The notes under the pieces were generated by a model, which ran no database searches, had not been told where the DNA came from, and saw only the letters and a program-made list of their open reading frames with translations. Shown piece after piece: positions 1 through 64,000 of a stretch of 64,000 nucleotides of DNA. How positions within the stretch are numbered: position 1 is the first letter of the stretch; every line of letters begins with the position of its first letter. The position numbers were made by a program, and so were the translations under genes. The stretch lies in the IMG/VR virus record IMGVR_UViG_3300045988_166199, positions 9,605 through 73,604 of that record; one strand, given 5' to 3'. The DNA is from a virus. Lineage: Duplodnaviria > Heunggongvirae > Uroviricota > Caudoviricetes.

Positions 1-25
1 AGGCTACCAGTTTAACGTCGAAGCT

Positions 26-895
26 GTGATATCAGATCGGCCACATAATCCACCTGCAGGTGCTCTTTTTAGCGAATCAAAATTCAAACATCAATCAACG
101 CTAAAATTAATCGGAAAAATCAAAGACAAACATGATCTTTTTACAGGAGTTAATGGCAAAAAATTCCCGTACTCTACGATGTCTCATGTAGTTAATAAGC
201 CGTTTGTTCTGGCGCTTGCACCCTTTGACTCCGATTTATCATTGTCTCAAAATAACACAATCATCAATCGAGTGTTGTTTGGCATTGAGGAACCTACCAC
301 CAGAAATTTGGTGACTGGCAGCCAAACTAAAGTTACCTCAATCAAAAAGAATGAAGACGTTGAAATTCCATTAGGTATATTTACTAACGACTCATATAAA
401 GAAATAAGTGCGGTTATTTTCTCCACCACCGGCACTTTTGGAAAAGCCGTGGTTCAAAGCGGTATCGGTAGATATGTAAGGTCAACACGATATCGAGCCA
501 TTGATGTGAATGATTTCATCGCCAATGAAGGGATGAAAAACGAGGGAAAGCACACACAAAGGATAGGTCCTGATCATTTCATCACTACATATCGGCATTT
601 TTTAAATAACGAAGTCACTGGTGCGGATATTGTAGTTTGCCATTCCACTGCTCATGAAGAGACGCACTTTGACGGCCTTCATATTTACTACAATCCTTTT
701 GCGACAGTGCCACTGGACAGAAATATTTTCTTCCCCCCAGAGATAACTCATAATTTTTACGATATGGAAAAAGAACAGTCTGTTCAGAATCATCCTGATG
801 GAGCGCTGGTATCTAGACAGGTTTTTGAACCAACTAGAGCACATTTTAGGTATATCATGAAACATTGGTTTCCAGGCTTTCTAAAAGATGTTTAA
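26..895 (+). CDS. hypothetical protein (289 aa)
   Basis: Long ORF in six-frame track; no recognisable motif; followed by hairpin terminator. Confidence 0.5.
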   Translation: MISDRPHNPPAGALFSESKFKHQSTLKLIGKIKDKHDLFTGVNGKKFPYSTMSHVVNKPFVLALAPFDSDLSLSQNNTIINRVLFGIEEPTTRNLVTGSQTKVTSIKKNEDVEIPLGIFTNDSYKEISAVIFSTTGTFGKAVVQSGIGRYVRSTRYRAIDVNDFIANEGMKNEGKHTQRIGPDHFITTYRHFLNNEVTGADIVVCHSTAHEETHFDGLHIYYNPFATVPLDRNIFFPPEITHNFYDMEKEQSVQNHPDGALVSRQVFEPTRAHFRYIMKHWFPGFLKDV

Positions 896-918
896 GCATC
901 CTGCTGGTTGAATTTGGA

Positions 919-980
919 ACCTGCTTCTGTATATAAATACTAAGTTACTTATTATTATTTATACGGAAGCAGGTCTTTTT
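919..980 (+). terminator. long-stem hairpin plus T-run (copy 1 of a repeated ~60-bp palindromic element)
   Basis: cctgcttctgtatataaata ... tatttatacggaagcagg followed by ttttt; near-identical element at 49721-49785. Confidence 0.6.
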
Positions 981-3298: not shown

Positions 3299-4480
3299 AT
3301 GAGCCTTTATGTTATATCAACATTTAGGTTGGTCACAATATTGCCTGTTAAAAGTGGAATTATCGTGAGCGAGCTGAAAGAGCTAATTACCGAATTAGAT
3401 TTTGAACAATGGTTGGATACTGAAGGTATCGTTTATCGACGTGGAGGCGTGAGTACTCGCGGTCGTGAAGTGAATATCAAGGAGTGTCCGGTATGCGGCA
3501 GCTCCAACTGGAAGGTATATTTCAATCTGACCAGTGGCGTCGGTAAATGCTTCGCTGGTGATCATCCCGAAGAGATTCAGTTCAATAAGCTGGTCTTCCT
3601 CAAGCACTACAGCGGTAAATCACGACGACAGTTCGAGGAATATGTGCAGAACGCTCTTCTTTCCCAGGGGTGGGCACCAAAGAAAGAAGAGATAGTGCTT
3701 GCAAGCACAGTCGAGTTAGAGGGACCAGTTGCACTCCCTCGTCATTACGATCTTCCTATAGATGGCCATCTTCCAGACTATCTGGTTGAACGAAATATAT
3801 CGCCTGAAATGGCAAAGTATTTTGACCTACGATACTGCGTCGAAGGCAAGCACGCTTATGTAGATCCGTATACAGATCAGGTTAAAGGACAGATTTTCGA
3901 TATGCGAATACTGATACCGGTTTACGATCTGGATGGGGTAATGAAGACATTTCAAGGACGAGACATTACCGGTACAGCAGAACGCCGCTACCTCTTTCCT
4001 ATGCAGCTTCCAGCTTCAGGTAAGTTTCTCTACAACGGCCACAATGCAGTCGGCAAACAGACTGTAGTTGTCTGTGAGGGGGCGTTCGATGTTATGGGGG
4101 TCAAACGAGCTATTTTTGACGAAGAAACATTACGCGATTACGTGGAACCAATAGGAACGTTCGGGATGCATCTATCTGGTAACACCACTCAGGATGCAGA
4201 AGATCAGTTGGGCGCGTTCCTGACGCTCAAGGCGCGTGGATTACGTAATGTGATCATGATGTGGGATAGTGAAAAGCAAGCTATACGAAACACTATGGCC
4301 GCAGCCAGGCGACTGACCAGTATCGGTCTTAATGTGAAAATTGCATGTTTGGGCGAGGAAGGACTCGACCCCGGCGATGCGACCCCGGGGCAGATTATCA
4401 AAGCCTACTATTGCGCAAAACCTTACTCACGACAGCTTGAACTTTTAAGCAAGGTAAAAGGCATAGCAGCATTAGTTTGA
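3299..4480 (+). CDS. DnaG-like DNA primase (zinc ribbon + TOPRIM)
   Basis: Zn-ribbon CPVCGSS..GKCF; TOPRIM-like VVCEGAFDVMG; start placed at in-frame ATG 3299 preceded by AAAGAAAAACACATG (ORF track starts at 3227). Confidence 0.75.
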   Translation: MSLYVISTFRLVTILPVKSGIIVSELKELITELDFEQWLDTEGIVYRRGGVSTRGREVNIKECPVCGSSNWKVYFNLTSGVGKCFAGDHPEEIQFNKLVFLKHYSGKSRRQFEEYVQNALLSQGWAPKKEEIVLASTVELEGPVALPRHYDLPIDGHLPDYLVERNISPEMAKYFDLRYCVEGKHAYVDPYTDQVKGQIFDMRILIPVYDLDGVMKTFQGRDITGTAERRYLFPMQLPASGKFLYNGHNAVGKQTVVVCEGAFDVMGVKRAIFDEETLRDYVEPIGTFGMHLSGNTTQDAEDQLGAFLTLKARGLRNVIMMWDSEKQAIRNTMAAARRLTSIGLNVKIACLGEEGLDPGDATPGQIIKAYYCAKPYSRQLELLSKVKGIAALV

Positions 4481-5617
4481 ACCAGTATTAGTCACGTACA
4501 CATTGACCGAAAATGATTTAACTTCTGTGTTGAAGTTGTCAGTCATTACCGCGAGGTAGGCATTCTTGGTATCTCTGAATTGCTTCAGGATGATTTGAAC
4601 GTTGTCGGTGCAAACAAACGAGGTAGCCAGATTGCCTCCTTTCTCTGAAAAATCCTTCAGGAAGGTGCAGTCAACTTTGCCATCATTAGCGGTGAAGGTA
4701 GCATCATCACCCTGCCAGGTAAATGTAGCGTTAACGCCCTTATCAATGGATTTAGCAATAAGTCGCTGGGTGGCGGATTTTGTTTTGGCTTTGGAAGCCG
4801 GCGCTCGATATTTGCCGCTTTCTTTCAGTTCTGCAATGTAATCGCAGCCTCTTTTTTCTCCTTTATCGCAAGCAGTCTGATAAAGGTCGGCTGCTTTTTT
4901 ATAGTCCTTTTTTACACCTTCCCCATTCTCATACATAATGCCAAGATTGGTTATGGCGTCGGCGTTTCCAAGTTCCGCTGCCTTTTTATACCACTTAACT
5001 GCTTCTGCATCATTGCGTTTAACGCCTAACCCATCATCGTATAGTATTCCTAATCCTATCATAGCTTCTGAACTGCCTTGGTCTGCCGCCTTTTTGTAAT
5101 AAGTAAAAGCCTTTTTATAATTCTTTTTAACGCCTTTACCATATTGGTAATACGCCCCAAGAACTGAAGTTGCTTTAACATACCCGGCATCAGAGGCTAG
5201 TTTGAAGTATTTAATGGCGAGTGCATGATCTACTTTACCAAGCATCCCCTTTTGATAAATAGCACCAAGATTGTTGTAGGCTCTACCTTCACGAGCATCC
5301 CCCGCAAGTTTGTAGTACTCAACAGCTTTATTTAGGTCTTTATCTACACCCTCGCCAAATGTGTACATAACTCCAAGTGCATAATATGCTACTTTATCTC
5401 CCTTTTCTGCAGCTAGATCAATCCACTTCTTGGCCTCAACTACATCCTTATCAAAACCATTGACACCATCAAAATAATTTGTACCTAACTCACTTTGTGC
5501 TGCGGTATCCCCTGCGGTAGCGGCTTCTATCAGCGTTTGTTTATTGTCTGCGTTAACGAATCCAGAGTTAAAAAGCAAAGTTAATGCCAGCAACGATGAA
5601 GATTTTATGTATTTCAT
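4472..5617 (-). CDS. secreted Sel1-like repeat (SLR) protein
   Basis: N-terminal signal peptide; about 7 tandem Sel1/TPR-like repeats (A.YYLG.MY..G.GV.KD...A..WY.KAA); opposite strand to flanking replication genes. Confidence 0.75.
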   Translation of the reverse strand: MKYIKSSSLLALTLLFNSGFVNADNKQTLIEAATAGDTAAQSELGTNYFDGVNGFDKDVVEAKKWIDLAAEKGDKVAYYALGVMYTFGEGVDKDLNKAVEYYKLAGDAREGRAYNNLGAIYQKGMLGKVDHALAIKYFKLASDAGYVKATSVLGAYYQYGKGVKKNYKKAFTYYKKAADQGSSEAMIGLGILYDDGLGVKRNDAEAVKWYKKAAELGNADAITNLGIMYENGEGVKKDYKKAADLYQTACDKGEKRGCDYIAELKESGKYRAPASKAKTKSATQRLIAKSIDKGVNATFTWQGDDATFTANDGKVDCTFLKDFSEKGGNLATSFVCTDNVQIILKQFRDTKNAYLAVMTDNFNTEVKSFSVNVYVTNTGSN

Positions 5618-5850
5618 GTTTTTTTGTTCTGTTGATATAGGATGAACAGTTTAGACGCGGCAAGCGTCAAGTGTGCGAAAAGGGTACTTAAATTTAGTTA
5701 ATCTGTCAGCTTTGATAATTTAATTTATGAACTGTAAAGTTGATGTGATATTAATCACCGATGGAAATAATGAGCTATGGAATTATTGTGACACGGCTCG
5801 TGTTTTGGTTAACTAATACCTACGATAAATATAAATAAAGGGAAGTCAAA

Positions 5851-6264
5851 ATGAGCAAAAAGAAGTTGATTTTAACAGGTGCTTTATTGTCTTTGTTTGC
5901 ATTAGTTGGGTGTAAGCCTACAGACGAGAAGGCTATTACTCTGGGCCAACAGGCAATTGCGGATGATATGAAAGATCCCACGTCGGTGATGTTTAGGAAA
6001 GATAAGTTTGTCAGGACTGATCATGATGATGGGAGTGTGACAGGCTTTGTGTGTGGTGAATTAAACGCCAAAAATGGCTTTGGTGCATACGTGGGCTATC
6101 ACTCATATGTTGTTGAACTCGAAATGAAGCCAAAGGGCATGTTTTCAAAAGGGGTGGTATACAAAATCCTATCGAAGTCGTTGGCACCTAATGATCCTCA
6201 TGATTTACAGCGTTATAAGCAGGTCTACAGAAAGATGTGCAACAGTGAGGCTGTAGCTCATTAA
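5851..6264 (+). CDS. putative lipoprotein (137 aa)
   Basis: Signal peptide with lipobox LVGC. Confidence 0.55.
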   Translation: MSKKKLILTGALLSLFALVGCKPTDEKAITLGQQAIADDMKDPTSVMFRKDKFVRTDHDDGSVTGFVCGELNAKNGFGAYVGYHSYVVELEMKPKGMFSKGVVYKILSKSLAPNDPHDLQRYKQVYRKMCNSEAVAH

Positions 6265-6389
6265 AGGTGAATGCTGGGCTGCGGATACGCCCGGCATCTT
6301 AGTATAAAGAACTATTGCACCTAAAATGATAAGTATATACATACTTAAGTTTTTGTAAGAATACTTTCATCCGTTAGCTAGGAGTTGGT

Positions 6390-11190: not shown

Positions 11191-12402
11191 TCAAAAAAGT
11201 TTTATAAATTCATAATTCTGGTCAATTAAGGATTCAATACACACCATGCAAAAATCTACATCGTTAAAATCAGGTGTGTAATATTCATCCTCATAACATT
11301 CATTTAGACCTTCAATCAATTTTTCTTTAAAAACTCCCCACGTTTCAATATGAACCATTTCCATATAAGGCGCATGTGTATGTACTTGCAATACATCCCA
11401 GGTGTCTATAACCTCGATCCGCGGCTTGCAATTAATTTTTTCTAAATATGCCCTCCCAGAATTGTAAATTTTCGACATTGATGCCCCAAAACCTGATGGT
11501 TGGTAATGAGTGTAAATGTCATAAATTTTTTGTCCTATTCTAGGGAGTTGAGAAGCATTGGATATTTGTGGCGAATGAAAGTATCGCTCTATGGAAGAAA
11601 ACGCAGAAACATTAACTAGAGTAATCGTATATGGTGCTAAAGTTCTCTCGTTCAAATTTCTACATAAAATAGCAAACCCATGGCTATTAGTCTTTTCACC
11701 GTCTGAGGACATTTTTGCCATGCTGGCTTTAATAACATTCAATTTCGAATGTAAACGAGAAGTGGAAGTCGGTTGATTATACATTTCATCATCATACAAA
11801 CATATATGAAACCCGCCAAGATGACGAAATGAGAACTTGAGTGCTTCTTCCGCAATAACTAATTTATTAATATCTAAAGGAGTAAGTGATACGTTACCTT
11901 GTAAATCATAGCAAGGTTCTAAACATAGAAAGTTTTTCTTCTGCCACACGATCATATTAAAAATAAAGTGTCTAACCAAAGGTGGCCAGTCAGGTGATAT
12001 AAGTACATTGGTAATATCTCCATCAGACAAGTATGACAAGTAACTTTTTAGTTCCGCAGCATATGCCACTAGCTCAGTTCCAGCTTCCCTTGTTGGTGTT
12101 GAAAAATTTTTTAACTCAATAAGAACTAAGGATTCATTCTCTGTTGAATAAGCAACGACATCAGGTCTTAATATCTCAGATTTTGTTGCTGAGATATTCT
12201 CATCATCTGTCATTAAATGTAACAATGTTATGTTCTTTAAACAAAACTGATAACTCTCCTTAATTTTTTTCTCTTCGGGTCTTTTCGGATTAAATTCATT
12301 TAATTTATCAATATTGATGATTGAATTATATAATCCATCTTGATCAGATAATTTGTCAATTATCCAATTTTGCATTTCCTTTTCGCTTAAAAATATTGAC
12401 AC
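11191..12402 (-). CDS. hypothetical protein, downstream partner of Abi-like gene (403 aa; AbiGii-like size; possible PD..(D/E)xK-like motif)
   Basis: Co-directional, 26-bp spacing from upstream gene; AT-rich codon usage; segment ILRPDVVAYS...LVLIELK compatible with a nuclease-type D...ExK motif (inference only). Confidence 0.55.
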   Translation of the reverse strand: MSIFLSEKEMQNWIIDKLSDQDGLYNSIINIDKLNEFNPKRPEEKKIKESYQFCLKNITLLHLMTDDENISATKSEILRPDVVAYSTENESLVLIELKNFSTPTREAGTELVAYAAELKSYLSYLSDGDITNVLISPDWPPLVRHFIFNMIVWQKKNFLCLEPCYDLQGNVSLTPLDINKLVIAEEALKFSFRHLGGFHICLYDDEMYNQPTSTSRLHSKLNVIKASMAKMSSDGEKTNSHGFAILCRNLNERTLAPYTITLVNVSAFSSIERYFHSPQISNASQLPRIGQKIYDIYTHYQPSGFGASMSKIYNSGRAYLEKINCKPRIEVIDTWDVLQVHTHAPYMEMVHIETWGVFKEKLIEGLNECYEDEYYTPDFNDVDFCMVCIESLIDQNYEFIKLF

Positions 12403-12428
12403 TAATTAGGCTCCCGTTAAACCAAAAA

Positions 12429-13295
12429 TTAAAAATCTTGCTTTACTTTATCCATGGTCAGAATTTTGCTAATAATTGAAGATTCAAATCCATCTAAACC
12501 TGAGAGAAAGTTAATTAGCTTTTGGATATGTTGTTCTTTAGGTATAAGTATATATTTTATATCATTGAACTCAAAATCAATGCCAAACTTTGAAAATTTT
12601 GAGCTAATTTTTGCTTTGTCATCAGAAGTGATAACACGCTCCAAACTCAGACTAGGCCATAAATCACCAATAAAAGGAGCTGGCACATAACGCCACTCTT
12701 TCTCGTCTGCATATATATAATTCTCTATTGTTTTATTATCTTTTCGCTCTAGCTTGCCTCTGTAATTTTTCATATAACGCAGTAAATTATATAGATCAGA
12801 ATATTCTGCTTTCAATTTCTCAAACTCTATTCTGTTTTTGGTATCTAAATTTCCTCTAGCCTTCCAAAGCGGCACCAACTTATTTTTAATAAGTCGAATT
12901 CTGGCATTGTATTTAGAAAATATTTCACTACTCTTATTCATATATAGAACTGGGTGTAGACCTTTCTTTTCCGCCCAAGACTTAGTTAGCCCAAGACCGA
13001 ATTCTCCATATTTTCCGCTATGATCTCTGATTTGTGATAGTTTTATGTCACAAAACGATACCATTGGTACTGCAAACCTCCTGCGTCCCCCGACTCCTCT
13101 TATTTCCTCGCGAGCAAGAAATGGTTTAAAATATTTCTCAGCCAATATGCTATAGAAAGCATCTTCGTTTTTTGTAAAATGAAACAACGTGGTTGGATGA
13201 AGACTATAAACAGATTCAACATTCGCATCAGGATTTTCAAGGATAGTCATTTTACACCTTGTGGAAAGCCAGTTTAGTTCTGTAAATAGTATCAC
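12429..13295 (-). CDS. abortive-infection-like protein (AbiGi-like, 288 aa)
   Basis: Motifs LFHFT, VPMVSFCDIKLSQ, YGEFGLGL.K.WAEKKGL.PVLY resemble AbiGi-type proteins as recalled from memory; AT-rich; first gene of a two-gene operon. Confidence 0.55.
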   Translation of the reverse strand: MILFTELNWLSTRCKMTILENPDANVESVYSLHPTTLFHFTKNEDAFYSILAEKYFKPFLAREEIRGVGGRRRFAVPMVSFCDIKLSQIRDHSGKYGEFGLGLTKSWAEKKGLHPVLYMNKSSEIFSKYNARIRLIKNKLVPLWKARGNLDTKNRIEFEKLKAEYSDLYNLLRYMKNYRGKLERKDNKTIENYIYADEKEWRYVPAPFIGDLWPSLSLERVITSDDKAKISSKFSKFGIDFEFNDIKYILIPKEQHIQKLINFLSGLDGFESSIISKILTMDKVKQDF

Positions 13296-13399
13296 ACGAC
13301 AGGCGGCTATTCTTCTATCAATAAATGATAGGTAAGCACTTACTTTTTACGCACGTTAACTGTATAGTTCTTTCGGATACTCACTTGAAAGGACTCAAT

Positions 13400-13543
13400 A
13401 TGGGAAATAAATGTAAACATGCGCGTCGCGCATCTCGTCAGGTGCAGAAGTCAAATCCATACATTCACGAGCACTACCACCTCAGCTCTTTCACTAACCG
13501 CTACACGTTCCCCAGCGAAGCGCATAACGAGGCAAAGCAATGA
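13400..13543 (+). CDS. small basic protein (about 47 aa; ORF track 13325..13543)
   Basis: Internal ATG start MGNKCKHARRASRQ; stop overlaps glutaredoxin start (ATGA). Confidence 0.3.
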   Translation: MGNKCKHARRASRQVQKSNPYIHEHYHLSSFTNRYTFPSEAHNEAKQ

Positions 13544-15077: not shown

Positions 15078-15175
15078 ACTGAAAATGAGTTACTTTTACT
15101 CTTGATCCTATAAGAATCTATGCCTAATATACTGTTTACTTATACAGTGCATCGGCGTAACTCGGTGATTGTCAT

Positions 15176-16279
15176 ATGAAAAATAGCTTTGACAGAGCAC
15201 GCGCTGCGGAGAACACCTCAAAAGAGGCGATTGAGTATCTCGAAAGAGCATCTCAAATGCAGGCCGTTATGATCTCCCAGGTCAGCAATGACATGAGATT
15301 CTCGGACGCATTCATGTTATTCACTCGCTTATCTCTGCTGATAACAAGACGTCGGCCAGAGATCGCTGTTCATTGTATTTTGATACATGTTTTGCCGCAC
15401 ATTGCCGATGTAAAAGTAAGTGATATTAATAGGTTCATGGTGAACCAACTGGTCAACCCACTAATACTGGATGGCAAAATTGTTATGGGTCGCCGCGTTT
15501 TCTCTCTGATGAAGCAGTTCCTCAGCTGGTGCGCCTTCCAGGGGATGATCGACGTGTCACCGTTAAACGATATGTCACTTAACAAAGTTGCCGGTGGCGC
15601 AAAGCCCACACCTCGCGAGCGGAAGCTGACCGACGCAGAGGTATGGGTGTTCTGGAATATATGGGACTACTTCAATGTGTGTGCTGGTACAAAATGGGCG
15701 GCCAGGCTATGTCTTGTATCCGCAAGACGACCTGACGAAGTACTGCGGGCTAAAAAAAGTGAGTTCAATCTTAAGCGTGGGGTTTGGAATCAAGGCAAGA
15801 GGAACAAATCTGCCCGTGAGCATTCTCTGCCTTTAAGCTCATTAATGCGCACATGTATTGAAGAGTTGTTCGAATATGGTAAAGACAGCCAGTGGCTCGT
15901 GCCTTCGAATAAAAAAATCGGGAAAGACCTTCCTATGTCTAAAGTGGCAATAGCCCAGGCATTACGTCGTATTCTGGAACGACCAGAACTGATGGAGCTT
16001 GAGCCATTTACACCCCGAGATTTGCGCCGTACTGCGCGTAGTTACTTCCCAGCATTAGGCATAAGCCAGGAGGTATCACGTAAAATCATGAACCACAGTC
16101 TTGAGGGGATAGATCGGGTCTACGACCGGCACGATTATATGGACGAGATGCGAGACGCCTTAGAAAGTTTCTCGACGTACATCGCATCAATCGTAGAGCA
16201 ACCGGATTTAGACGAAATTGACCACAAATTTAAGGGAGATCGTCTATCAACAGAGCTTATTCGTGTAAATTTTTCATAG
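15176..16279 (+). CDS. tyrosine-type site-specific integrase
   Basis: C-terminal catalytic motifs: R in LVSARRPDE, RDLRRTARS box II, NHS...RVYDRHDY with tyrosine nucleophile; lacks a recognisable P4-type N-terminal arm-binding domain. Confidence 0.8.
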   Translation: MKNSFDRARAAENTSKEAIEYLERASQMQAVMISQVSNDMRFSDAFMLFTRLSLLITRRRPEIAVHCILIHVLPHIADVKVSDINRFMVNQLVNPLILDGKIVMGRRVFSLMKQFLSWCAFQGMIDVSPLNDMSLNKVAGGAKPTPRERKLTDAEVWVFWNIWDYFNVCAGTKWAARLCLVSARRPDEVLRAKKSEFNLKRGVWNQGKRNKSAREHSLPLSSLMRTCIEELFEYGKDSQWLVPSNKKIGKDLPMSKVAIAQALRRILERPELMELEPFTPRDLRRTARSYFPALGISQEVSRKIMNHSLEGIDRVYDRHDYMDEMRDALESFSTYIASIVEQPDLDEIDHKFKGDRLSTELIRVNFS

Positions 16280-54132: not shown

Positions 54133-54190
54133 TCTGACAGCTATCTGCAATTTGCACAGATATCTGCCAGATCTGGTTCAGATTAATACA

Positions 54191-57100
54191 CTATATCTGC
54201 CCACCTACTCCTTTGAACTTTTCAATAAACGTGACGATTTTCTGGAAAACGGTCTGTTTTTTCGTTTTATATTGCGGGTTTAACGGACTAAGTTTTGGTA
54301 ATGTCTCGTTTAATTCTGTGCCATTTTCGGTGGCGTATTCGCGTTTTAAAGACGTGCGAATATAGCGTTTTGCTGCATCTTCATTGAGATTTTCTTCTTT
54401 TATCAATGCTTCTGCTTCACGTTGCTGTTCGCGTTTAGCAAACGTAAAGAATGCCTCAATGATACTGGCTTTGTCTGGTAAATCATCCAGGTTCGTTTGC
54501 TGAATAAAATCGACCACCAGGCCCTCTTTCGCCCGGTTCCCCAGGCTTGAACGAATTAAGCGTTTGACCTCTTCGATCATTTCGCCCTTGCCTTTATTTT
54601 GTCTGTTGTGTTCGAAAATCAGTCCAAGGATATAATCCAGGTTTATTTCCTGAGACTTCAGCAAATCGACCTCAAAAACCACGTCATCCCAGTCGGTGGT
54701 TGATTTTTCTTTTTTGTCAGCTTCTTTCTCACGGCGCTGCCAGTCGCGAATATCGTTATAGGCAGAACGATAATCCTGGAGCTTGCGTTCAGCAGGGAGA
54801 CGAATCGTTTGCAATTCAGCGAACTTTTCATCATCCACATAATGTTCTGCTTTGAATTTTTCTACTGCAACAGGATCGCTAAGATCGATTTGTTGCAGGG
54901 CTTTCAGCGTGGCAAATTCATCATAGTTTTGCAGGATGTTCTCGGTACGCAGGTATTCACCAAACAGTTTAACGAAGTCTTTCTTCTCTTTTTCACTTTC
55001 AATACTGGCAGGGTCAGGGAACCGTTGTTCCAGTTCTGCAACTACTGCCATAAAGCCGCGCTTAGCTTCACCAGTAGCAGCATCAGTAAAGCCTTCCATA
55101 TACTCTGCATAACTCTTTTCTAACACTACATTTTTGGTGTTTTTGTCACCAAACAGCGTTATGGCATCGATGGTTGAGCGTTCCAGATCGCGGAAAGTGA
55201 CGATATTACCGAAGGTTTTAGTAGCGTCATAAATGCGGTTGGTGCGGGAAAATGCCTGCATCAGGCCGTGAAAACGCAAGTTTTTATCGACGAATAGCGT
55301 GTTCAATGTTGGAGCGTCGAAGCCGGTTAAAAACATCCCCACGACAATTAATAGATCGATATCCTGATTTTTAACCCGTTGGGCTAAATCACGATAGTAG
55401 TTCTGAAAACCCTTGCTATCAGTGCTGAAATTCATTTGAAAATGGTCGTTATACTCACGAATTGCAGCGTCCAGAAACTCTTTAGCACTGCTGTCCATTG
55501 CACTGGTATCAAAAGATTCATCGGATATTTCACCAATGGCATTTTGTTCTTCATTAGCGGCAAAGGAGAAGATTGTCGCAACACGCAGTGGTTTATAGGT
55601 AGCAGATTTATTAGCTGCTTCCTCTTGTAACCGTTTAAACGTCGCGTAATAGGCTTTCGCGGCATCCACGCTGCTCACTGCCAACATAGCATTAAAACCT
55701 TTTGAGCCAGGGAAGGTACGGTGGGTTTTCTGGCGGAAATTATTCAGAATATATTGCGTGATTTCCTGAATACGCATGGGATGAAGAAACGCCTGCTGAT
55801 TTTCAGCCGCACTCAGTTTTTTCTCGTCAGTTTCTGTCTCTAAAGACTTAAACTGTGGCCGCACATCGTTGTAGTCCACCTTGAATTTGAGCACTTTTTC
55901 GTCACGAATCGCATCGGTAATTACATACGAATGCAATTCACGACCAAATACGCTGGCGGTTGTTTCTGAGCCTAAGGCGTTTTCCGGGAAAATAGGGGTG
56001 CCGGTAAAACCAAACTGATAATAGCGTTTGAATTTCTTCTTCAGGTTTTTCTGCGCTTCTCCAAACTGGCTGCGGTGGCATTCATCAAATATAAACACCA
56101 CTTGCTGATTATATACAGGCAGGTCGCTTTCTGCTTTCATCAGGTTATTGAGTTTCTGAATAGTAGTGACGATAATTTTGTTATCGTCCTTATCCAGATT
56201 TCGTTTAAGGCCTGCGGTATTTTCCGAGCCGTTGACGCTGTCTGGCGAAAAACGCTGATATTCCTTCATGGTCTGGTAATCGAGGTCTTTCCTGTCGACC
56301 ACGAAGAAGACTTTATCAATAAAGTCCAGCTCTGTTGCCAGACGCGCGGCTTTAAAGCTGGTCAGGGTTTTACCGGAACCCGTGGTGTGCCAGATATACC
56401 CACCGCTTTCCGGTTTTGACCAGTTCTTCGCTGTAAAGGAGCTCTTAATTTTCCACAGAATGCGCTCGGTGGCAGCAATCTGGTACGGTCGCATTACCAG
56501 TAGCGTCTGACTGCTGTCAAAAACGCTGTAGTTCACCAGAACATTAAGCAGAGTATGTTTCTGGAAAAAGGTAGCGGTAAAGTCTTTGAGGTCTTTAATC
56601 AGTGTATTGTCTGATTTAGCCCAGTTCATGGTGAAGTCAAAACTGTTTTTATCGCGCTTTGTGGTGTTGGCAAAATAACGGGTATCAGTGCCGTTGGAAA
56701 TGACGAACAGCTGCAGATACTTAAACAGGGAATTTTCGCTGTTAAAACTCTCTTTACTGTAACGATGTATCTGGTTGAAAGCCTCACGAATCGCCACCCC
56801 GCGTTTTTTTAGTTCGATTTGCACCAGCGGTAAACCATTAACCAGGATCGTGACGTCATAACGGTTAGCATGAGAACCCGTCTGTTCAAACTGCTGGATA
56901 ATCTGCACCTTATTGCGCATGAGATTCTTTTTATCTATCAAATAGATGTTCTCAAGACGCTCGTCATCAAAAATAAAGTCGCAAATATAGTCGATATGGA
57001 TTTTACGGGTCTTATCCAGAATGCCATCACTCGGGTTGTCCAGATACTGCTCCGTGAAACGCCGCCACTCGCTGTCATTAAACACCACACCATTGAGGTT

Positions 57101-57307
57101 CTGAAGCTGTTCCCGAACGTTGGCCAGCATCGCTGACTGTGATTTTACGGATATAAATTCATAGCCCTGATTTCGCAGGTCCTGAATCAGTTCCCGTTCC
57201 AGGTCCGATTCGCTCTGATAGCTGTCGCCTGTTTGCTCAGCTTTGATGTACTTATCAAGAACGATAAAGTTATTGGATTCAGCAATGGTGTGTGTCTGAT
57301 GAGTCAT
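54191..57307 (-). CDS. hsdR: type I restriction enzyme R subunit (HsdR)
   Basis: Helicase motifs with GSGKT-type Walker A and DECHRSQ box; 1038 aa; last gene of hsdM-hsdS-hsdR operon. Confidence 0.9.
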
Positions 57308-57428
57308 AGCGCATCCTTTGTGCCGTCTGGCAAGGGCCGGAAGGGAGTTAAGGGTGAGTTCCGGCGCGTAAAAAATAGTCTATATACTGACCGGATGTTA
57401 AGGAGGCCCGGTTGGTAGCAATGGTCAA

Positions 57429-58562
57429 TTATTTACTGACAGTTTCAGGTTTTGGGAAACTGAACAGTAAATCACGATAGTACTCGTATTGTTTCTGGCG
57501 TAACTCGATTTCACGCGGAAGACCTTCGGTGATGGAGTTGGTAAGGGTGTCGAATTTATCGAGTATAGAAACAATACGGTCTTGTTCGGTGATAGGAGGT
57601 ATAGGTATATCATAGGTTTCAAACTCTTTCACTCGGACATGAGGCACACCCGCACCTTTTTTCATTGCATGGATGTGCTCTTGTTTATTTTGTAGCACGT
57701 GGTATATAAACTTTGGTTTTACAATTTTTAAGTCGGAATGAACACTAAAGGCATCGGTTAAAAATATTGGCTGATCCCAGAAGCTGACATATCCTGCATA
57801 GGCACCAGATCTGGCTATAACGATTGTTTCACCTTGTCTGTTGCTCTCGCTATGAAAATAAGTAGGAATTGGTCCATTGGCAACTACTGGTATTTCTCCT
57901 GGTGTTGTCTGTTTTTGGGTAATTGCCGTTCCTCGCTTAAACTGAGCCACTTCCCCCAAAGTCTTCCACTCAACCTCACCCTCTTTAAAACTCAACAACT
58001 GGTCACGATAGTAGTTGTACTGTTTTTTACGCATGTTAAGCTCAGCGGTAAGCTCAGCGGTAAGTGCAGTAAATTTATCCAGAATTCGAACGATTTCAGA
58101 CTGGATGGCAAGGGATTTTTCCGGGTTTTCTGGGCAGGGGATGGGGATAAGTAGTTTATTAACTACGATAGCATCAAGTGTTGGAATGCCCGCAACTCTC
58201 ACCTTTGATTTCAGCAAACTTTGATAACCAATCAGTGCGAAATATAAAAACCTATTATTTAATAGCTCATTGTGCTCTAAGCAAAAGCATCCATCAGAGG
58301 ACCAGAAGTCAACGGTGCTATAGCCAACAGTACCTGCTGAAGCGCCAACATTGATAATCATAACGGTATTAGCCGGACGATTCGACTTATTGTAATATCC
58401 TAACGGTTCTAAGCCGCCATGAAATACCGGGAATTTTTCTTCTGCTGAAAGCAGATTTTTAGTTAGCCTTTTTCCCCGCAAGACACTCGTGACATCTCCA
58501 AGGGCTTTCCATTCCACCTCTGTCCCATCTAGCAGTTTTTCCAGATAATTTAACTCGCTCAT
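57429..58562 (-). CDS. hsdS: type I restriction-modification specificity subunit (HsdS)
   Basis: Two target-recognition halves separated by conserved helical spacers; start overlaps hsdM stop. Confidence 0.8.
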
Positions 58563-60121
58563 CCCTGCACCTCGTCACCTTCAATCTCTGCCACAATTGA
58601 GTCGATATCTTTACGCAACTGGTCGATTTTGCTGACCGTAGTTTTCAGTTCTGCATTCAGCTCAGCAATATTGATTATTTCGCGGTTATCTTTCGCTTCC
58701 ACATAGCTGCTCACTGACAGGTTATAGTCATTCGCTACAATGGTTTCAAACGCGACAGATTTTGCCAGATGAGCAACATCTTCCTTGCTGGCAAATACCT
58801 GCATAATCTGGTTGATATGGGCATCGGTCAGGATATTGTTGTTAGTCTCTTTTTTGAACAGTTCGCTGGCGTCAATAAACTGAACGTTGGTATCCGTTTT
58901 ATGTTTAGACAGCACCAGAATATTGACGGCAATGGTGGTGCCAAAGAACAGGTTCGGTGCCAGTGAAATCACGGTTTCGACATAGTTATTGTCAACCAGA
59001 TACTGACGGATTTTCTGCTCCGCGCCGCCACGGTAAAAAATGCCCGGGAAGCAGACAATCGCAGCACGACCTTTGGCAGAAAGATAGTTCAGCGCATGTA
59101 ATACAAACGCAAAGTCAGCTTTGGATTTGGGGGCCAGAACGCCAGCCGGGGCAAAACGTTCATCGTTAATCAGCGTCGGGTCATCGCTGCCAATCCATTT
59201 CACCGAATACGGCGGGTTAGAAACGATGGCATCAAACGGTTTTTCATCTCTGAAGTGCGGCTCAGTCAGCGTATTGCCCAGCTTGATATCAAACTTGTCG
59301 TAGTTGATGTTGTGCAAAAACATGTTCATACGCGCCAGGTTATAGGTCGTATGGTTGATCTCCTGACCAAAAAAACCTTCTTCGATGATATGGTCATCAA
59401 ACTGTTTTTTAGCCTGCAACAACAGCGAACCGGAGCCTGCTGCCGGGTCGTAGATTTTGTTAACGTGGGTCTGCCCGTGCATAGCCAGTTGTGCAATCAG
59501 CTTAGAGACGTGCTGCGGTGTAAAGAACTCGCCGCCTGACTTACCGGCATTTGCCGCATAGTTAGAGATCAGGAACTCATAGGCATCACCGAACAGGTCA
59601 ATCTGATGTTCGTTGAAGTCACCAAGTTTTAACCCTTCAACCCCTTTCAGAACCGCAGCCAGGCGGGCATTTTTATCTTTAACGGTGTTACCCAGGCGGT
59701 TACTGGTGGTATCGAAATCAGCAAACAAACCTTTGATGTCAGCTTCTGAAGGATAACCGTAAGCAGAACTTTCGATAGCAACGAAGATGCTGTTTAAATC
59801 TGCATTCAGTCTGTCATTAGTATTTGCTTTCGCAGCTACGTTGCAGAAAAGCTGACTGGGGTAGATGAAGTAGCCTTTGGTTTTGATGGCATCGTCTTTA
59901 ATGTCATCAGTAATTACGCTGTCATCCAGTTTCGCATAACAGATACTGTCATCCCCAGCTTCAATATAGCTGGAAAAATTTTCGCTGATAAAACGGTAGA
60001 AAAGTGCGCCCAGAACGTATTGCTTAAAATCCCATCCATCGACCGAACCCCTGACATCGTTAGCAATTTGCCAGATTTGACGATGAAGCTCTGCACGTTG
60101 TTGAATACTTGTCATTTTCAT
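58559..60121 (-). CDS. hsdM: type I restriction-modification DNA methyltransferase subunit (HsdM)
   Basis: N6-adenine MTase motif IVSNPPYS and SAM-binding DPAAGSG; 520 aa. Confidence 0.9.
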
Positions 60122-61247
60122 CCACTTATTTCAGGCTTATGTAATTGGCGGTGATTCTACAGCAACTTGGATGCTTTAGCAGTTCGGACATTAGGCAACG
60201 AATGACCTAATTAGAGCTTTTTGGAAAAGCGGTATTGTCGGTGCGATGATAGCTATGTTTGGGTGCGCGATGGTGCAATACAATGACGGTGAAAAGGTAA
60301 GCATCCAGTCTGATGGCTGGTATGGGCTGGATAGCCTGCAAAAAACCGCAGATAAAGCCTGTCAGCAATATGGAAAGTCTAAAGCCGTATATCAGCATAG
60401 CGCGAACGCTAATCCACATCTCGCGCCCGGCACGGGCGTTCAGAACACTATTTGGAAATGCGAACCATAACGCAGGTTGGCTTTTTACATCTTGGGCCGA
60501 ATACTGATTCCGCGCTAAGTTGTTTGTGCGGAAGTGACACTGTGGAGCTTAGAAATAGTAAATACTGGTGGGCAACAAATTGAGCCTTCACACGCTCACC
60601 AGCACACACAAAAAATGGTTAAACAGCAAGGGAGTTAATATCTCATCGCGACATTAAATAAGCCAGCGCACGCCTCTGTTTATCACTGACTTGAAAAACC
60701 ATATCAGAACCACGATGAAGACAATCGCCAGCACTTGGCTAAGAACAGGCGCATTTAAAAATGCACTTAGAAACTGAAAAAATACAATCATCAAGGTAAT
60801 CCTCGTCTAATGTAAAGCTGTGTGCTCTCACGTTGACGTAGAAACCCAACCTCTATATAGTTGGATTCGGTGAAAGAAAGTCGTTAACGTGAACTTACGG
60901 CACATGTTTTCGGTATAAAAATCAGGGAACTGTGAATTCCTTGATGTAGTTGGGGCCTGTAATGCAGGCCCTATCTATTAATGTCATGATTACATCTCAA
61001 ATTTTCTCCTTATCATTATTATTTAATAAAATTCAATTAATATAATATCCATTTCCTGTGTGTGCAAACACAGTATGAGGAAAATGGCCCCGTTGCAAGT
61101 GCATAACTTTGTGGATAACTCTGAAGGCGAATTTACATTTCGGCGCACCGCAAGCCAGATAAGCTGTGCGCAAAAAGCAATGGGGTGAGAAAAAAACTTT
61201 GAAGATATTGCGGCGACTAAATAATAGCCGTTATTCAATTATTCTGG

Positions 61248-61511
61248 ATGGGATTTAATATGAACGAATGGAACATAGCAGCCAAAAGCCAGGAAGAAAG
61301 GAATAAAGTTAACGTTGACCTGGCTGCCAGGGGGGTTGCCTACAAAGAGCGATTGAACATACCCGTCATAGCGGAACAGGTAGCCCGTGAGCAACCTGAG
61401 AACCTGCGCACCTATTTCATGGAACGGCTACGGCACTACCGGCAGTTAAGCCTCCTGCTGCCAAAAGGAAACGATCCGGTATATCAGAAAGAAGATATAG
61501 CCAAAAAATAA
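61248..61511 (+). CDS. hypothetical protein (87 aa)
   Basis: ORF upstream of UmuD'-like gene. Confidence 0.4.
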
Positions 61512-61609
61512 CGCGCCACCAGGCGAGCGCAAAGCATCGCGCTATTGCACACTTCAAGCATCTTTAATGTATACTGTATGGATAAACAGTACTCTGAGGT
61601 GAAAACGCT

Positions 61610-61999
61610 ATGGGCTTCCCTTCTCCTGCGGCGGATTATGCTGAGAGCCGTATTTCTCTTGATCAGCAGATAATTAGACATCCTTCAGCGACCTACTTCT
61701 TGAGGGCAGCTGATAGTCATCATCATGAGGGAATATTACAGGGTGCATTGCTGGTGGTCGATTCCTCACTTACCCCGGTTGATGGTTCTCTGCTTGTATG
61801 CGCTCTGGATGGGGAATATCGCGTAAAAAGATACCGGAAGTATCCACGTCAGCATCTGGAGGATTTAAGAACCGGTAAGAAGGAAGCATTGCCAAAGGAT
61901 GACGATGGATGCACGGGCAGCAATGCCGTGTTTGGTGTGATTACTCACATTATCAACGACGCAAGAAGTGGCGAGTTTGATGATTGTCCCGTGATGTAG
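61610..61999 (+). CDS. UmuD'-like protein (HumD-like, lacks the N-terminal autocleavage segment)
   Basis: Begins MGFPSPAADY, aligning with the post-cleavage N-terminus of UmuD (GFPSPAADY); Ser (ADSH) and Lys (RVKRY) dyad positions retained; no umuC follows. Confidence 0.75.
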   Translation: MGFPSPAADYAESRISLDQQIIRHPSATYFLRAADSHHHEGILQGALLVVDSSLTPVDGSLLVCALDGEYRVKRYRKYPRQHLEDLRTGKKEALPKDDDGCTGSNAVFGVITHIINDARSGEFDDCPVM

Positions 62000-62011
62000 G
62001 AGAACTGATTA

Positions 62012-62036
62012 GGCGGTGCAATGCACCGCCTTTTAT
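62012..62036. terminator. bidirectional hairpin terminator
   Basis: aggcggtgc aa tgcaccgcct tttat between convergent UmuD'-like gene and mrp. Confidence 0.7.
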
Positions 62037-63136
62037 CACACTGCGCGGAATGCGATCTCGCCAGGTATTACTTCGCCTTGCCAATACATTTGGGCAGCAA
62101 CGCGATCTGCGAGGTCACGATAAATAGCCGTAAATTCGCTATCTGGACGACTAATAACGGTTGGTGTTCCGTTATCCAGATCTTCACGAAGAGAGATATG
62201 AAGTGGCATTTGGCCTAACAACTGCGTGTTGTATTTCTCGGCCAGTTTCTGTGCGCCACCGGTGCCAAAAATTGGCTCGTGATGACCGCAGTTACTGCAA
62301 ATATGCACACTCATGTTTTCGACGATACCCAGTACCGGCACTTCGACTTTTTCGAACATCACAATGCCTTTCTTCGCATCGATCAGCGCGATGTCTTGCG
62401 GCGTAGTTACCACAACCGCACCAGTTACAGGAATGTTCTGCGCCAGCGTCAACTGAATATCACCAGTGCCCGGCGGCATATCGAGAACGAGATAGTCCAG
62501 ATCAGGCCATAGAGTTTCCTGCAACATCTGCATCAGCGCCTTGCTGGCCATCGGCCCACGCCACACCATTGCATTGTCGTCGGTGACCAGATAACCAATA
62601 GAGTTGGTTGCCAGGCCATGAGACATGATAGGTGCCATGTGAGTACCGTCCGGTGAGGTTGGACGTTGGTTTTCCGCGCCCAGCATGGTTGGAATTGATG
62701 GACCATAGATATCGGCATCCAAAATACCAACTTTCGCACCTTCAGCAGCCAACGCCAGTGCCAGGTTTACCGCCGTGGAGGATTTACCCACGCCGCCCTT
62801 GCCTGAGCTGACGGCGATAATGTTCTTAACGCCATTAATGCCTGGTTGGTTTTTGACGCGCTTAAGCGTGGCAATGTTGTACGACAGCTTCCAGTCAATA
62901 GCCTTTGCGCCAGTGATACGGAGCAGATCACCACTACATTGCTCTTTCAGGTCTTCAAAAGGCTTATTCCACACGAAAGGCATGATTAGTTCGACATGCA
63001 GTGTGTCATCCATCAACGCAACATGGTGTAACGCTTTAAGCGTAGTCAGGTTGTGTTTCAGGGTTGGGTGCTGAAAATTAGCCAGCGTACCGGCTACCAT
63101 TGCTCTCAGGGCATCCGGCGATTTGGACTCGCTCAT
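62036..63136 (-). CDS. apbC: Fe-S cluster carrier ATPase Mrp/ApbC
   Basis: Walker A SGKGGVGKSS, CxxC motif, near-identity to enterobacterial Mrp as recalled. Confidence 0.95.
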   Translation of the reverse strand: MSESKSPDALRAMVAGTLANFQHPTLKHNLTTLKALHHVALMDDTLHVELIMPFVWNKPFEDLKEQCSGDLLRITGAKAIDWKLSYNIATLKRVKNQPGINGVKNIIAVSSGKGGVGKSSTAVNLALALAAEGAKVGILDADIYGPSIPTMLGAENQRPTSPDGTHMAPIMSHGLATNSIGYLVTDDNAMVWRGPMASKALMQMLQETLWPDLDYLVLDMPPGTGDIQLTLAQNIPVTGAVVVTTPQDIALIDAKKGIVMFEKVEVPVLGIVENMSVHICSNCGHHEPIFGTGGAQKLAEKYNTQLLGQMPLHISLREDLDNGTPTVISRPDSEFTAIYRDLADRVAAQMYWQGEVIPGEIAFRAV

Positions 63137-63293
63137 CCCGTCTCCTTTATTTTAATTTGCGCAATTGTCGCCTTGTAGTGTACTCCAGCTACGACATTTA
63201 ATCATTTATGAGAAATGCTGTTATCACATGGCAGACATAAGGCCATTTTGTTACTATCAAGCCCCTTTTCACTACAAAGAAGTAATGCCTACT

Positions 63294-64000
63294 ATGACCC
63301 AAGTCGCGAAGAAAATTCTGGTGACGTGCGCGCTGCCGTACGCTAACGGCTCAATCCACCTCGGCCATATGCTGGAGCACATCCAGGCTGATGTCTGGGT
63401 TCGTTACCAGCGAATGCGCGGCCACGAGGTTAATTTCATCTGTGCCGACGATGCCCACGGTACGCCGATCATGCTGAAAGCACAGCAGCTTGGTATCACA
63501 CCGGAGCAGATGATTGGCGAAATGAGTCAGGAACACCAGACTGATTTCGCAGGCTTTAACATCAGCTATGACAACTATCACTCGACGCACAGCGAAGAGA
63601 ACCGTCAGTTGTCTGAGCTTATCTATACTCGCCTGAAAGAGAACGGTTTTATTAAAAACCGCACTATCTCTCAGTTGTACGACCCGGAAAAAGGCATGTT
63701 CCTGCCGGATCGTTTTGTAAAAGGCACCTGCCCGAAATGTAAAGCGCCAGATCAATACGGCGATAACTGTGAAGTCTGCGGCGCAACATATAGCCCGACT
63801 GAATTGATCGAGCCGAAATCGGTGGTTTCTGGCGCTACCCCGGTAATGCGTGATTCCGAACACTTCTTCTTTGATCTACCTTCTTTCAGCGAAATGTTGC
63901 TGGCATGGACCCGCAGCGGTGCGTTGCAGGAGCAGGTGGCAAATAAAATGCAGGAGTGGTTTGAATCCGGCCTGCAACAGTGGGATATCTCCCGCGACGC
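63294..64000 (+). CDS. metG: methionine--tRNA ligase (N-terminal part; continues beyond window)
   Basis: [43 protein letters not shown]... HIGH-type motif and zinc knuckle CPKC..C..CG; E. coli-like. Confidence 0.95.

Follow-up and report, generated by a model that had tools for sequence, protein, structure and literature searches.

Sequence evidence for a stand-alone, P1-type humD gene on a phage-plasmid

The closest described relative of the protein considered here is HumD of phage P1, which was reportedly characterised in 1999 by McLenigan et al. (J Bacteriol 181:7005) and is said in that work to dimerise, to bind both UmuC and RecA filaments and, when over-expressed, to restore mutagenesis in recA430 lexA(Def) cells. 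The same authors reportedly found that HumD complements well only when over-expressed and that it is poorly expressed natively, so that what it does under natural conditions may be something other than mutagenesis as such. In the host system to which HumD is related, the UmuD'2C complex requires RecA-ATP from a RecA* filament for its activation, and umuC is itself repressed by LexA. A note in the P1 record reads 'functionally complements E. coli UmuD'', and substitution of HumD for UmuD' in the case of P1 is also described in a published account (PMC7092418).

We analysed a 64,000-nucleotide stretch of viral DNA (hereafter, the window), which is collinear, in reversed orientation, with the 108,374-bp E. 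coli plasmid 'pIncFIB' (NZ_CP082122.1) at 94–99.6% identity over most of its length. This plasmid is annotated with a RepB initiator, with partition genes of the ParB type, with genes for a siphovirus-type head and tail (terminase, portal, major capsid, tape measure and TipJ), and with a large replication and nucleotide-metabolism set consisting of dnaE, a DnaB-like helicase, primase, ligase, a gp32-type SSB, recA, nrdAB, thyA and dfrA51. The nearest phage records are those of Escherichia phages Cyrano, PhiR41_1 and CMS-2020a, of 107–109 kb, and we take the element of the window to be a phage-plasmid of the SSU5/pHCM2 type, not of the P1 type. The dfrA51 gene is the DHFR gene of Salmonella phage-plasmid SSU5 (PMC12217456). 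Variable segments lacking a megablast match to NZ_CP082122.1 lie at window positions 1–920, 4423–6328 and ~11200–13500; between 9000 and 15000, aligned with 18.6–23 kb of the plasmid, identity falls to 81–97% with gaps, around a region of tRNA (Ser/Thr/Asn) and glutaredoxin genes.

The gene under study (Table 1) is an ORF with an ATG start whose product begins MGFPSPAADY (N-terminal reading MGFPSPAADYAESRISLDQQ..., the same ORF also being given as MGFPSPAADYAESRISLDQQIIRHPSATYF...). This product matched the NCBIfam HumD equivalog NF051876 from end to end (residues 1–129 on profile positions 1–129 of 129) with 214.2 bits (E 4.3e-64), far above the curated cutoff of 120 bits, whereas the UmuD subfamily model NF007621 gave 86.8 bits, below its cutoff of 110. 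As a member of LexA the 129-residue protein failed: the repressor model TIGR00498 reached 29.7 bits (cutoff 110.95) and covered only profile positions 91–166, the region of the C-terminal domain. The general Peptidase_S24 family (PF00717) was matched at 39.7 bits against a gathering score of 23.3. P1 HumD (AAQ14073) aligned over the full 129 of 129 residues without gaps, with 116 identical (90%), and the DNA that matches at 99.9% identity in NZ_CP082122.1 and in several plasmids related to it is labelled 'HumD family translesion DNA polymerase' by RefSeq. The sequence-only reading had described the protein as being like P1 HumD; the relationship is closer than analogy, and on these alignments the ORF is humD, the orthologue of the P1 gene.

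Table 1. Features of the humD locus and its surroundings in the window
Feature	Position	Strand	Details
hsdS	57429..58562	-	type I restriction-modification system
hsdM	58559..60121	-	type I restriction-modification system
hsdR	inferred from collinearity with NZ_CP082122.1	-	type I restriction-modification system
upfM-upfN-upfO / DnaA-box / LPhot-like leader	60597..61247	+	blastn 78% to P1 85929-86579
hot, DNA polymerase III theta homologue	61248..61511	+	Pfam DNA_pol3_theta E 2.7e-31; PRK10969 97.4 bits
Predicted sigma-70-like promoter	61546..61575	+	TGCACA-18 nt-TATACT; consensus scan, 9/12 matches
LexA (SOS) box TACTGTATGGATAAACAGTA	61572..61591	+	18 nt upstream of humD ATG
Shine-Dalgarno GAGGTG	61596..61601	+	8 nt before humD ATG, read from sequence
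humD	61610..61999	+	129-aa stand-alone UmuD'-type protein, S24 fold
Intrinsic-terminator-like hairpin + TTTTAT	62011..62036	+	9 bp, 3-nt loop; abuts convergent apbC stop
apbC (mrp)	62036..63136	-	366-aa ApbC/Mrp ORF, convergent to humD
metG	from 63295	+	divergent from apbC

Alignment with UmuD placed the start of the protein precisely. By tblastn, residues 25–139 of K-12 UmuD (query taken from NC_000913.3) align onto window positions 61613–61966 at 42% identity (E 2.5e-26). Searched against the PDB with phmmer, HumD residue 2 corresponds to residue 1 of crystallised UmuD' (1UMU, E 5.7e-23) and to residue 25 of full-length UmuD (8GMT_B); UmuD' crystal and NMR chains match at E values of 1e-22 to 1e-23, all from UmuD' residue 1, and LexA chains at ~1e-3. 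Met1-Gly2 of the window protein thus falls on UmuD Cys24-Gly25, and from these two alignments it follows that HumD begins exactly at the self-cleavage site, at the first residue of UmuD', as had been claimed. An in-frame extension that would provide a full UmuD N-terminus is ruled out, since three stops lie within 15 codons upstream of the ATG (4, 8 and 14 codons 5' of it; the upstream frame translates as '...HL*CILYG*TVL*GENA-M'). The Shine-Dalgarno sequence is kept in P1, and reads GAGGTA in P7. AlphaFold2 modelling of the protein on a 101-sequence alignment gave a mean pLDDT of 50 and a pTM of 0.41, low values that are presumably due to every row of the alignment sharing at least 66% identity with the query.

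The dyad positions, previously called retained, are indeed so: Ser36 and Lys73 of HumD occupy the columns of UmuD Ser60 and Lys97, but the GDSM nucleophile motif around the serine is degraded to A-DSH by deletion of Gly58 and replacement of Met61 by His. Neither an N-terminal arm with a Cys/Ala-Gly self-cleavage site nor an intact G-D/S-S-M motif is present in the window protein. In every feature tested, the gene agrees with the HumD family and departs from autoproteolytic UmuD and from LexA.

We observed no UmuC partner on the element. With K-12 UmuC as the tblastn query, no homologue was found: the best E value was 6.5 for the 64-kb window and 0.45 for the complete collinear plasmid, in whose annotation none of 122 features is a Y-family polymerase; both being empty, the absence of umuC noted earlier for the neighbourhood holds for the element as a whole. 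The host species carries the gene almost universally, umuC being present on the chromosome in 5423 of 5426 complete E. coli genomes, and a UmuC partner is therefore available to HumD.

Downstream of humD, the terminator and the convergent mrp gene that the sequence-only reading had reported were both found. The hairpin proper, GC-rich and at 62011–62031, is followed by TTTTAT, and the 51-nt stretch 61995–62045 that contains it folds at −21.4 kcal/mol (z −4.09 against shuffles). A simple terminator scan did not list this hairpin; by folding, it is real. It is not of chromosomal origin, because K-12 homology begins 4 nt inside the stop-codon end of apbC. An Rfam scan of 60000–63400 returned no matches, and hence the unannotated leader and intergenic regions hold no known RNA element.

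Upstream of humD lies a LexA box, TACTGTATGGATAAACAGTA, which aligns with the annotated LexA protein_bind features of P1 and P7 and is the same as the K-12 umuDC operator, TACTGTATATAAAAACAGTA, at 17 of 20 positions. The pattern CTGT-N8-ACAG occurs only twice in the 64-kb window, once in this box, and the −10 element of the predicted humD promoter overlaps it. The other LexA-box-like site, TACTGTTTACTTATACAGTG, lies at 15130–15149 (+), 27 nt 5' of the start of an ORF (15176..16279, +) whose 367-aa product is a tyrosine recombinase/integrase (WP_001718057.1 of the reference plasmid), and suggests possible SOS control of the phage-plasmid recombinase.

Taken with the work on P1, these features make it likely that SOS-induced HumD serves as a ready-made UmuD', which would pair with host UmuC into a Pol V-like polymerase. 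In undamaged cells, host LexA bound to the box over the −10 element would keep humD off; upon DNA damage, RecA* would trigger LexA self-cleavage, and humD would be transcribed together with host umuDC. Because translation begins at the equivalent of UmuD Gly25, HumD would be made directly in the UmuD' form and would not need RecA*-facilitated self-cleavage. Its dimer could then bind host UmuC to give HumD2-UmuC, a Pol V-like translesion polymerase that would be available sooner after SOS induction than if UmuD had first to be processed, and that would still need RecA-ATP for activity. The expected benefit would be better survival and mutagenic bypass of damage in phage-plasmid or host DNA. For the window protein, dimerisation, UmuC and RecA* binding and UmuD' complementation are here predicted from the P1 HumD work and Pol V biochemistry, and the transfer of function from P1 HumD is likely given 90% identity.

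It had also been proposed that the protein could act on host translesion synthesis without RecA-mediated activation. This was correct for the RecA*-facilitated self-cleavage step, which appears to be bypassed, but it does not extend to the rest of the pathway. With a strong LexA box in front of it, humD should still require the cleavage of LexA that RecA* induces for its expression; the same derepression should apply to host umuC, and activation of Pol V by RecA-ATP should be a third step that requires RecA*.

To place the gene in its family, we surveyed 50,697 phage records by tblastn and found HumD-type genes in 81, including P1, P7, SJ46, RCS47, D6 and SSU5-type E. coli phages, as well as N15, phiKO2, HK140, HK639, P22-like Salmonella phages and phages of Aeromonas and Hafnia. 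At six phage loci that were inspected, the humD-type gene is a stand-alone 'moron', never beside umuC, and lies after tail-fibre genes or beside dinI, and before an integrase gene or sopAB. The protein database gave 560 clusters at E<=1e-5; among the best 120 of these, most proteins are 126–130 aa long, 105 start with MGFPSPA and many are named HumD, and this start is shared across elements of Escherichia, Salmonella, Citrobacter, Klebsiella, Enterobacter, Aeromonas and Hafnia. Two homologues on contigs of ~105–109 kb from other genera belong to an N15/phiKO2-like element and to a prophage end in a chromosome contig, so that neither of these two contigs represents an SSU5-type element outside Escherichia. 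In phiKO2 (locus positions 2181–2884), the humD-type gene and dinI are divergent and share one annotated LexA site, and in HK140 (locus positions 1910–2890) the two genes are likewise paired; this pairing recurs in N15/phiKO2-type and some lambdoid phages, as a small SOS module of RecA*-interacting proteins.

An alignment of 116 sequences (nine phage proteins, K-12 UmuD and family representatives of 120–140 aa) showed how far the protease motif has drifted. The residue equivalent to UmuD Gly58 is deleted in all HumD-type members, and 99 have His in place of Met61; the Ser60 column contains Ser in 65, Thr in 47 and Ala, Gln or Tyr in 4, with Gln or Tyr occurring in distant members. The Lys97 column is occupied by Lys in 111 of 116, the exceptions including Met in HK639 and Arg in two distant members. 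Such drift of the S24 nucleophile motif is what would be expected once self-cleavage is no longer needed.

A further family feature is a C-terminal extension past the end of UmuD, which is near-invariant in HumD-type proteins (NDARSGEFDDCPV[M/I/L]). In the window protein, it comprises residues 116–129 (NDARSGEFDDCPVM; window 61955–61996) and ends SGEFDDCPVM; almost every full-length sequence of the 120 listed has the same or a near-identical EFDDCPV[MIL]-type tail, and it is recognisable even in Aeromonas and Hafnia members of 43–50% identity, as EWDDLPVI and EFDDNPCM. In the sequences examined, proteins that have the tail lack both the arm and a umuC partner, and UmuC-linked phage UmuDs do not carry it. 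Resemblance of the terminal CPVM to a CaaX-like prenylation box was dismissed as coincidence for a protein that works in bacteria. The conserved tail and the retained Ser/Thr-Lys pair are unexplained by a simple model in which HumD is a surrogate for UmuD'.

A resemblance that we noticed post hoc concerns SSB. E. coli SSB ends ...PPMDFDDDIPF, and when this end is compared with that of HumD (...SGEFDDCPVM) in a gap-free alignment anchored at the last residue, the [D/E]-F-D-D element falls equally far from the hydrophobic last residue. It is conceivable, though we think it rather improbable, that the HumD tail (...[DE]-F/W-D-D-x-P-x-[MIL]-COOH; here GEFDDCPVM) mimics the SSB tip and docks HumD or HumD2-UmuC onto sites that bind this tip. 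If so, candidate sites would be the chi subunit of the clamp loader, RecO, PriA and SSB's own OB fold, and docking there might make up for targeting contacts that were lost with the UmuD arm or, during SOS, put HumD in competition with SSB clients. The signature of the family as a whole, in which the arm is lost, the protease motif is degraded and an acidic tail resembles the SSB tip, might explain the differences between HumD and UmuD'.

Homology to P1 DNA runs from ~60597 to 61999, across the leader, hot and humD, at 78–87% nucleotide identity, and ends at the humD stop codon. The window Hot protein is 87% identical to P1 Hot, with the RefSeq start of the gene at the second ATG (61260). The lxr gene, divergent between hot and humD in P1, is absent from the window, as it is from RCS47. 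A P1-type upfMNO-hot-humD block without lxr inside an SSU5-type backbone is a mildly new point of context and an example of module exchange between groups of phage-plasmids; hot-humD-like DNA is found in ~14% of complete E. coli genomes, for the most part on plasmids. NZ_CP082122.1 has no annotated CDS in the region equivalent to the leader, and the whole 1.1 kb between hsdM and hot (60122–61247) is bare of gene annotation in this RefSeq relative; in the homologous stretch of P1, three small upf ORFs and DnaA boxes are annotated.

On the other side, the divergent apbC(mrp)-metG pair (window 62036–64000) is arranged as on the E. coli chromosome, to which it is 85% identical in the part within the window and 88% for the full pair in NZ_CP082122.1 (K-12 comparison). 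These values of only 85–88% argue against recent capture from E. coli K-12-like DNA; the pair is host-derived, and its position beside the hot-humD block is likewise mildly new as context. A second methionyl-tRNA synthetase and an Fe-S carrier are unusual cargo for a phage-plasmid. Directly upstream of the hot-humD block, on the minus strand, is a complete type I restriction-modification system (~54190–60121), a stretch that looks like an accessory or variable cargo region.

Several other functions for HumD have to be weighed against this background. It is improbable, in our estimate, that HumD mainly modulates RecA* filaments and the SOS response in the manner of DinI or PsiB and is not a polymerase subunit, and there is an equally small chance that its binding to RecA* damps recombination, cleavage of LexA or of a repressor, or prophage induction. 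P1 HumD reportedly binds RecA nucleoprotein filaments in vitro, UmuD'2C inhibits RecA-mediated recombination, and the gene lies beside dinI in phiKO2, HK140 and Klebsiella N15-like elements; in the window, however, no dinI is next to humD, the neighbour being hot, and the P1 record states complementation of UmuD'. Binding to RecA* is, moreover, a part of normal Pol V function, so that this activity would be compatible with the polymerase model. The adjacency of hot points in another direction, towards a hot-humD module that tunes the replisome, in which Hot would stabilise epsilon and HumD, in the manner of UmuD', would bind Pol III alpha, epsilon or beta and so manage the progression of the fork; this we hold to be distinctly unlikely, and we see just as little probability in the variant by which the module serves the phage-plasmid's own DnaE replisome independently of UmuC. 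The umuD gene products are said, in work by Sutton et al. in 1999 and Silva et al. in 2012, to bind the alpha, epsilon and beta subunits, hot lies next to humD and is inherited with it in P1, D6, RCS47 and the element of the window, and this type of element encodes its own dnaE, helicase, primase and recA. HOT can replace theta and stabilise the epsilon proofreader (PMC2528190). Yet humD occurs without hot in N15, phiKO2, HK140, HK639 and P7, and the beta-clamp motif of UmuD, TFPLF, lies in the N-terminal arm that HumD is missing.

That HumD is still an active S24 protease, cutting host UmuD, LexA or a phage repressor in trans, is very unlikely. Cleavage of UmuD can be intermolecular, and the match of Ser36 and Lys73 to the UmuD dyad, together with the near-constant lysine in the family, would fit such an activity; against it stand the Thr in 40% of nucleophile columns and the Gln or Tyr of distant members, the family-wide loss of Gly58 with the change of Met61 to His in 99 members, and the Met or Arg that replaces the lysine in HK639 and two distant proteins. 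Lack of an arm and of a umuC partner could also mark the ORF as a decaying, 5'-truncated remnant of umuDC without function, to which we assign almost no credence: the ORF is intact and has its own Shine-Dalgarno sequence, promoter-like site, LexA box and terminator, the same start recurs in 105 of 120 listed family representatives across genera, and the family-specific conserved tail is present. This pattern of conservation effectively refutes a pseudogene. We regard HumD as probably a ready-made partner of host UmuC.

As a discovery the gene has little weight: NCBIfam has a model dedicated to HumD, RefSeq gives the HumD label to a near-identical gene, and the humD of the window is not new, either as a family or as an allele in public annotation. 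Compared with its P1 counterpart, it shares the protein length, the gapless alignment and the start at the UmuD cleavage site, as well as the position and core of the LexA box, the Shine-Dalgarno sequence, the SGEFDDCPV tail, the upstream hot gene and the lack of umuC. The two differ by 13 amino-acid substitutions, and in their carriers, P1 as opposed to a siphoviral phage-plasmid of presumed SSU5/pHCM2 type, in the presence of lxr between hot and humD in P1, and downstream, where P1 has phd-doc and the window has the terminator and the convergent apbC-metG pair.

E. coli UmuD and UmuD', the accessory subunit of Pol V (PDB 1UMU, 1I4V and 1AY9), have in common with HumD the S24 domain, with the 42% identity from Gly25 onwards and the Ser/Lys pair, and the two genes appear alike in being under LexA control. 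Unlike HumD, E. coli UmuD has a 24-residue N-terminal arm with a Cys-Gly cleavage site, and its GDSM motif reads -DSH in HumD, which in turn has a 3–4 residue insertion before the last strand and an acidic C-terminal extension of ~10–13 residues. E. coli umuD is in an operon with umuC; humD of the window is not.

Among temperate phages, the same truncated architecture and tail are found in N15 gp26, phiKO2 gp23, HK140 gp28, HK639_28 and the proteins of D6, RCS47, SJ46, Cyrano and PhiR41_1, and these humD-type genes are, like that of the window, stand-alone 'morons' with their own terminator, with an annotated LexA site in phiKO2. The HumD proteins of Cyrano, PhiR41_1 and CMS-2020a are 98% identical to that of the window, and the same apbC-type gene comes next; those of the lambdoid and N15 group are 62–70% identical, have Thr at the Ser60 equivalent and differ in their neighbours (dinI, tail fibre, integrase or sopAB). 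In Salmonella phage Oslo, the deposited start of umuD (AMBK_31, 79 aa; locus positions 1845–2348) is an internal Met, and this CDS is probably mis-started, because an in-frame ORF upstream encodes a full-length UmuD with an N-terminal arm and a Cys-Gly site. The umuDC genes of Cronobacter phage ENT39118, Salmonella phage Oslo and Morganella phage IME1369_01 resemble the HumD group in encoding S24 UmuD homologues, in being carried by temperate phages and in their location near the integrase end; however, their UmuD proteins are full-length, keep the N-terminal arm, the cleavage site (A/C-G) and an intact G[DS]SM motif and have no EFDD tail, and umuC follows directly. This contrast with the phage umuDC operons marks HumD as a separate kind.
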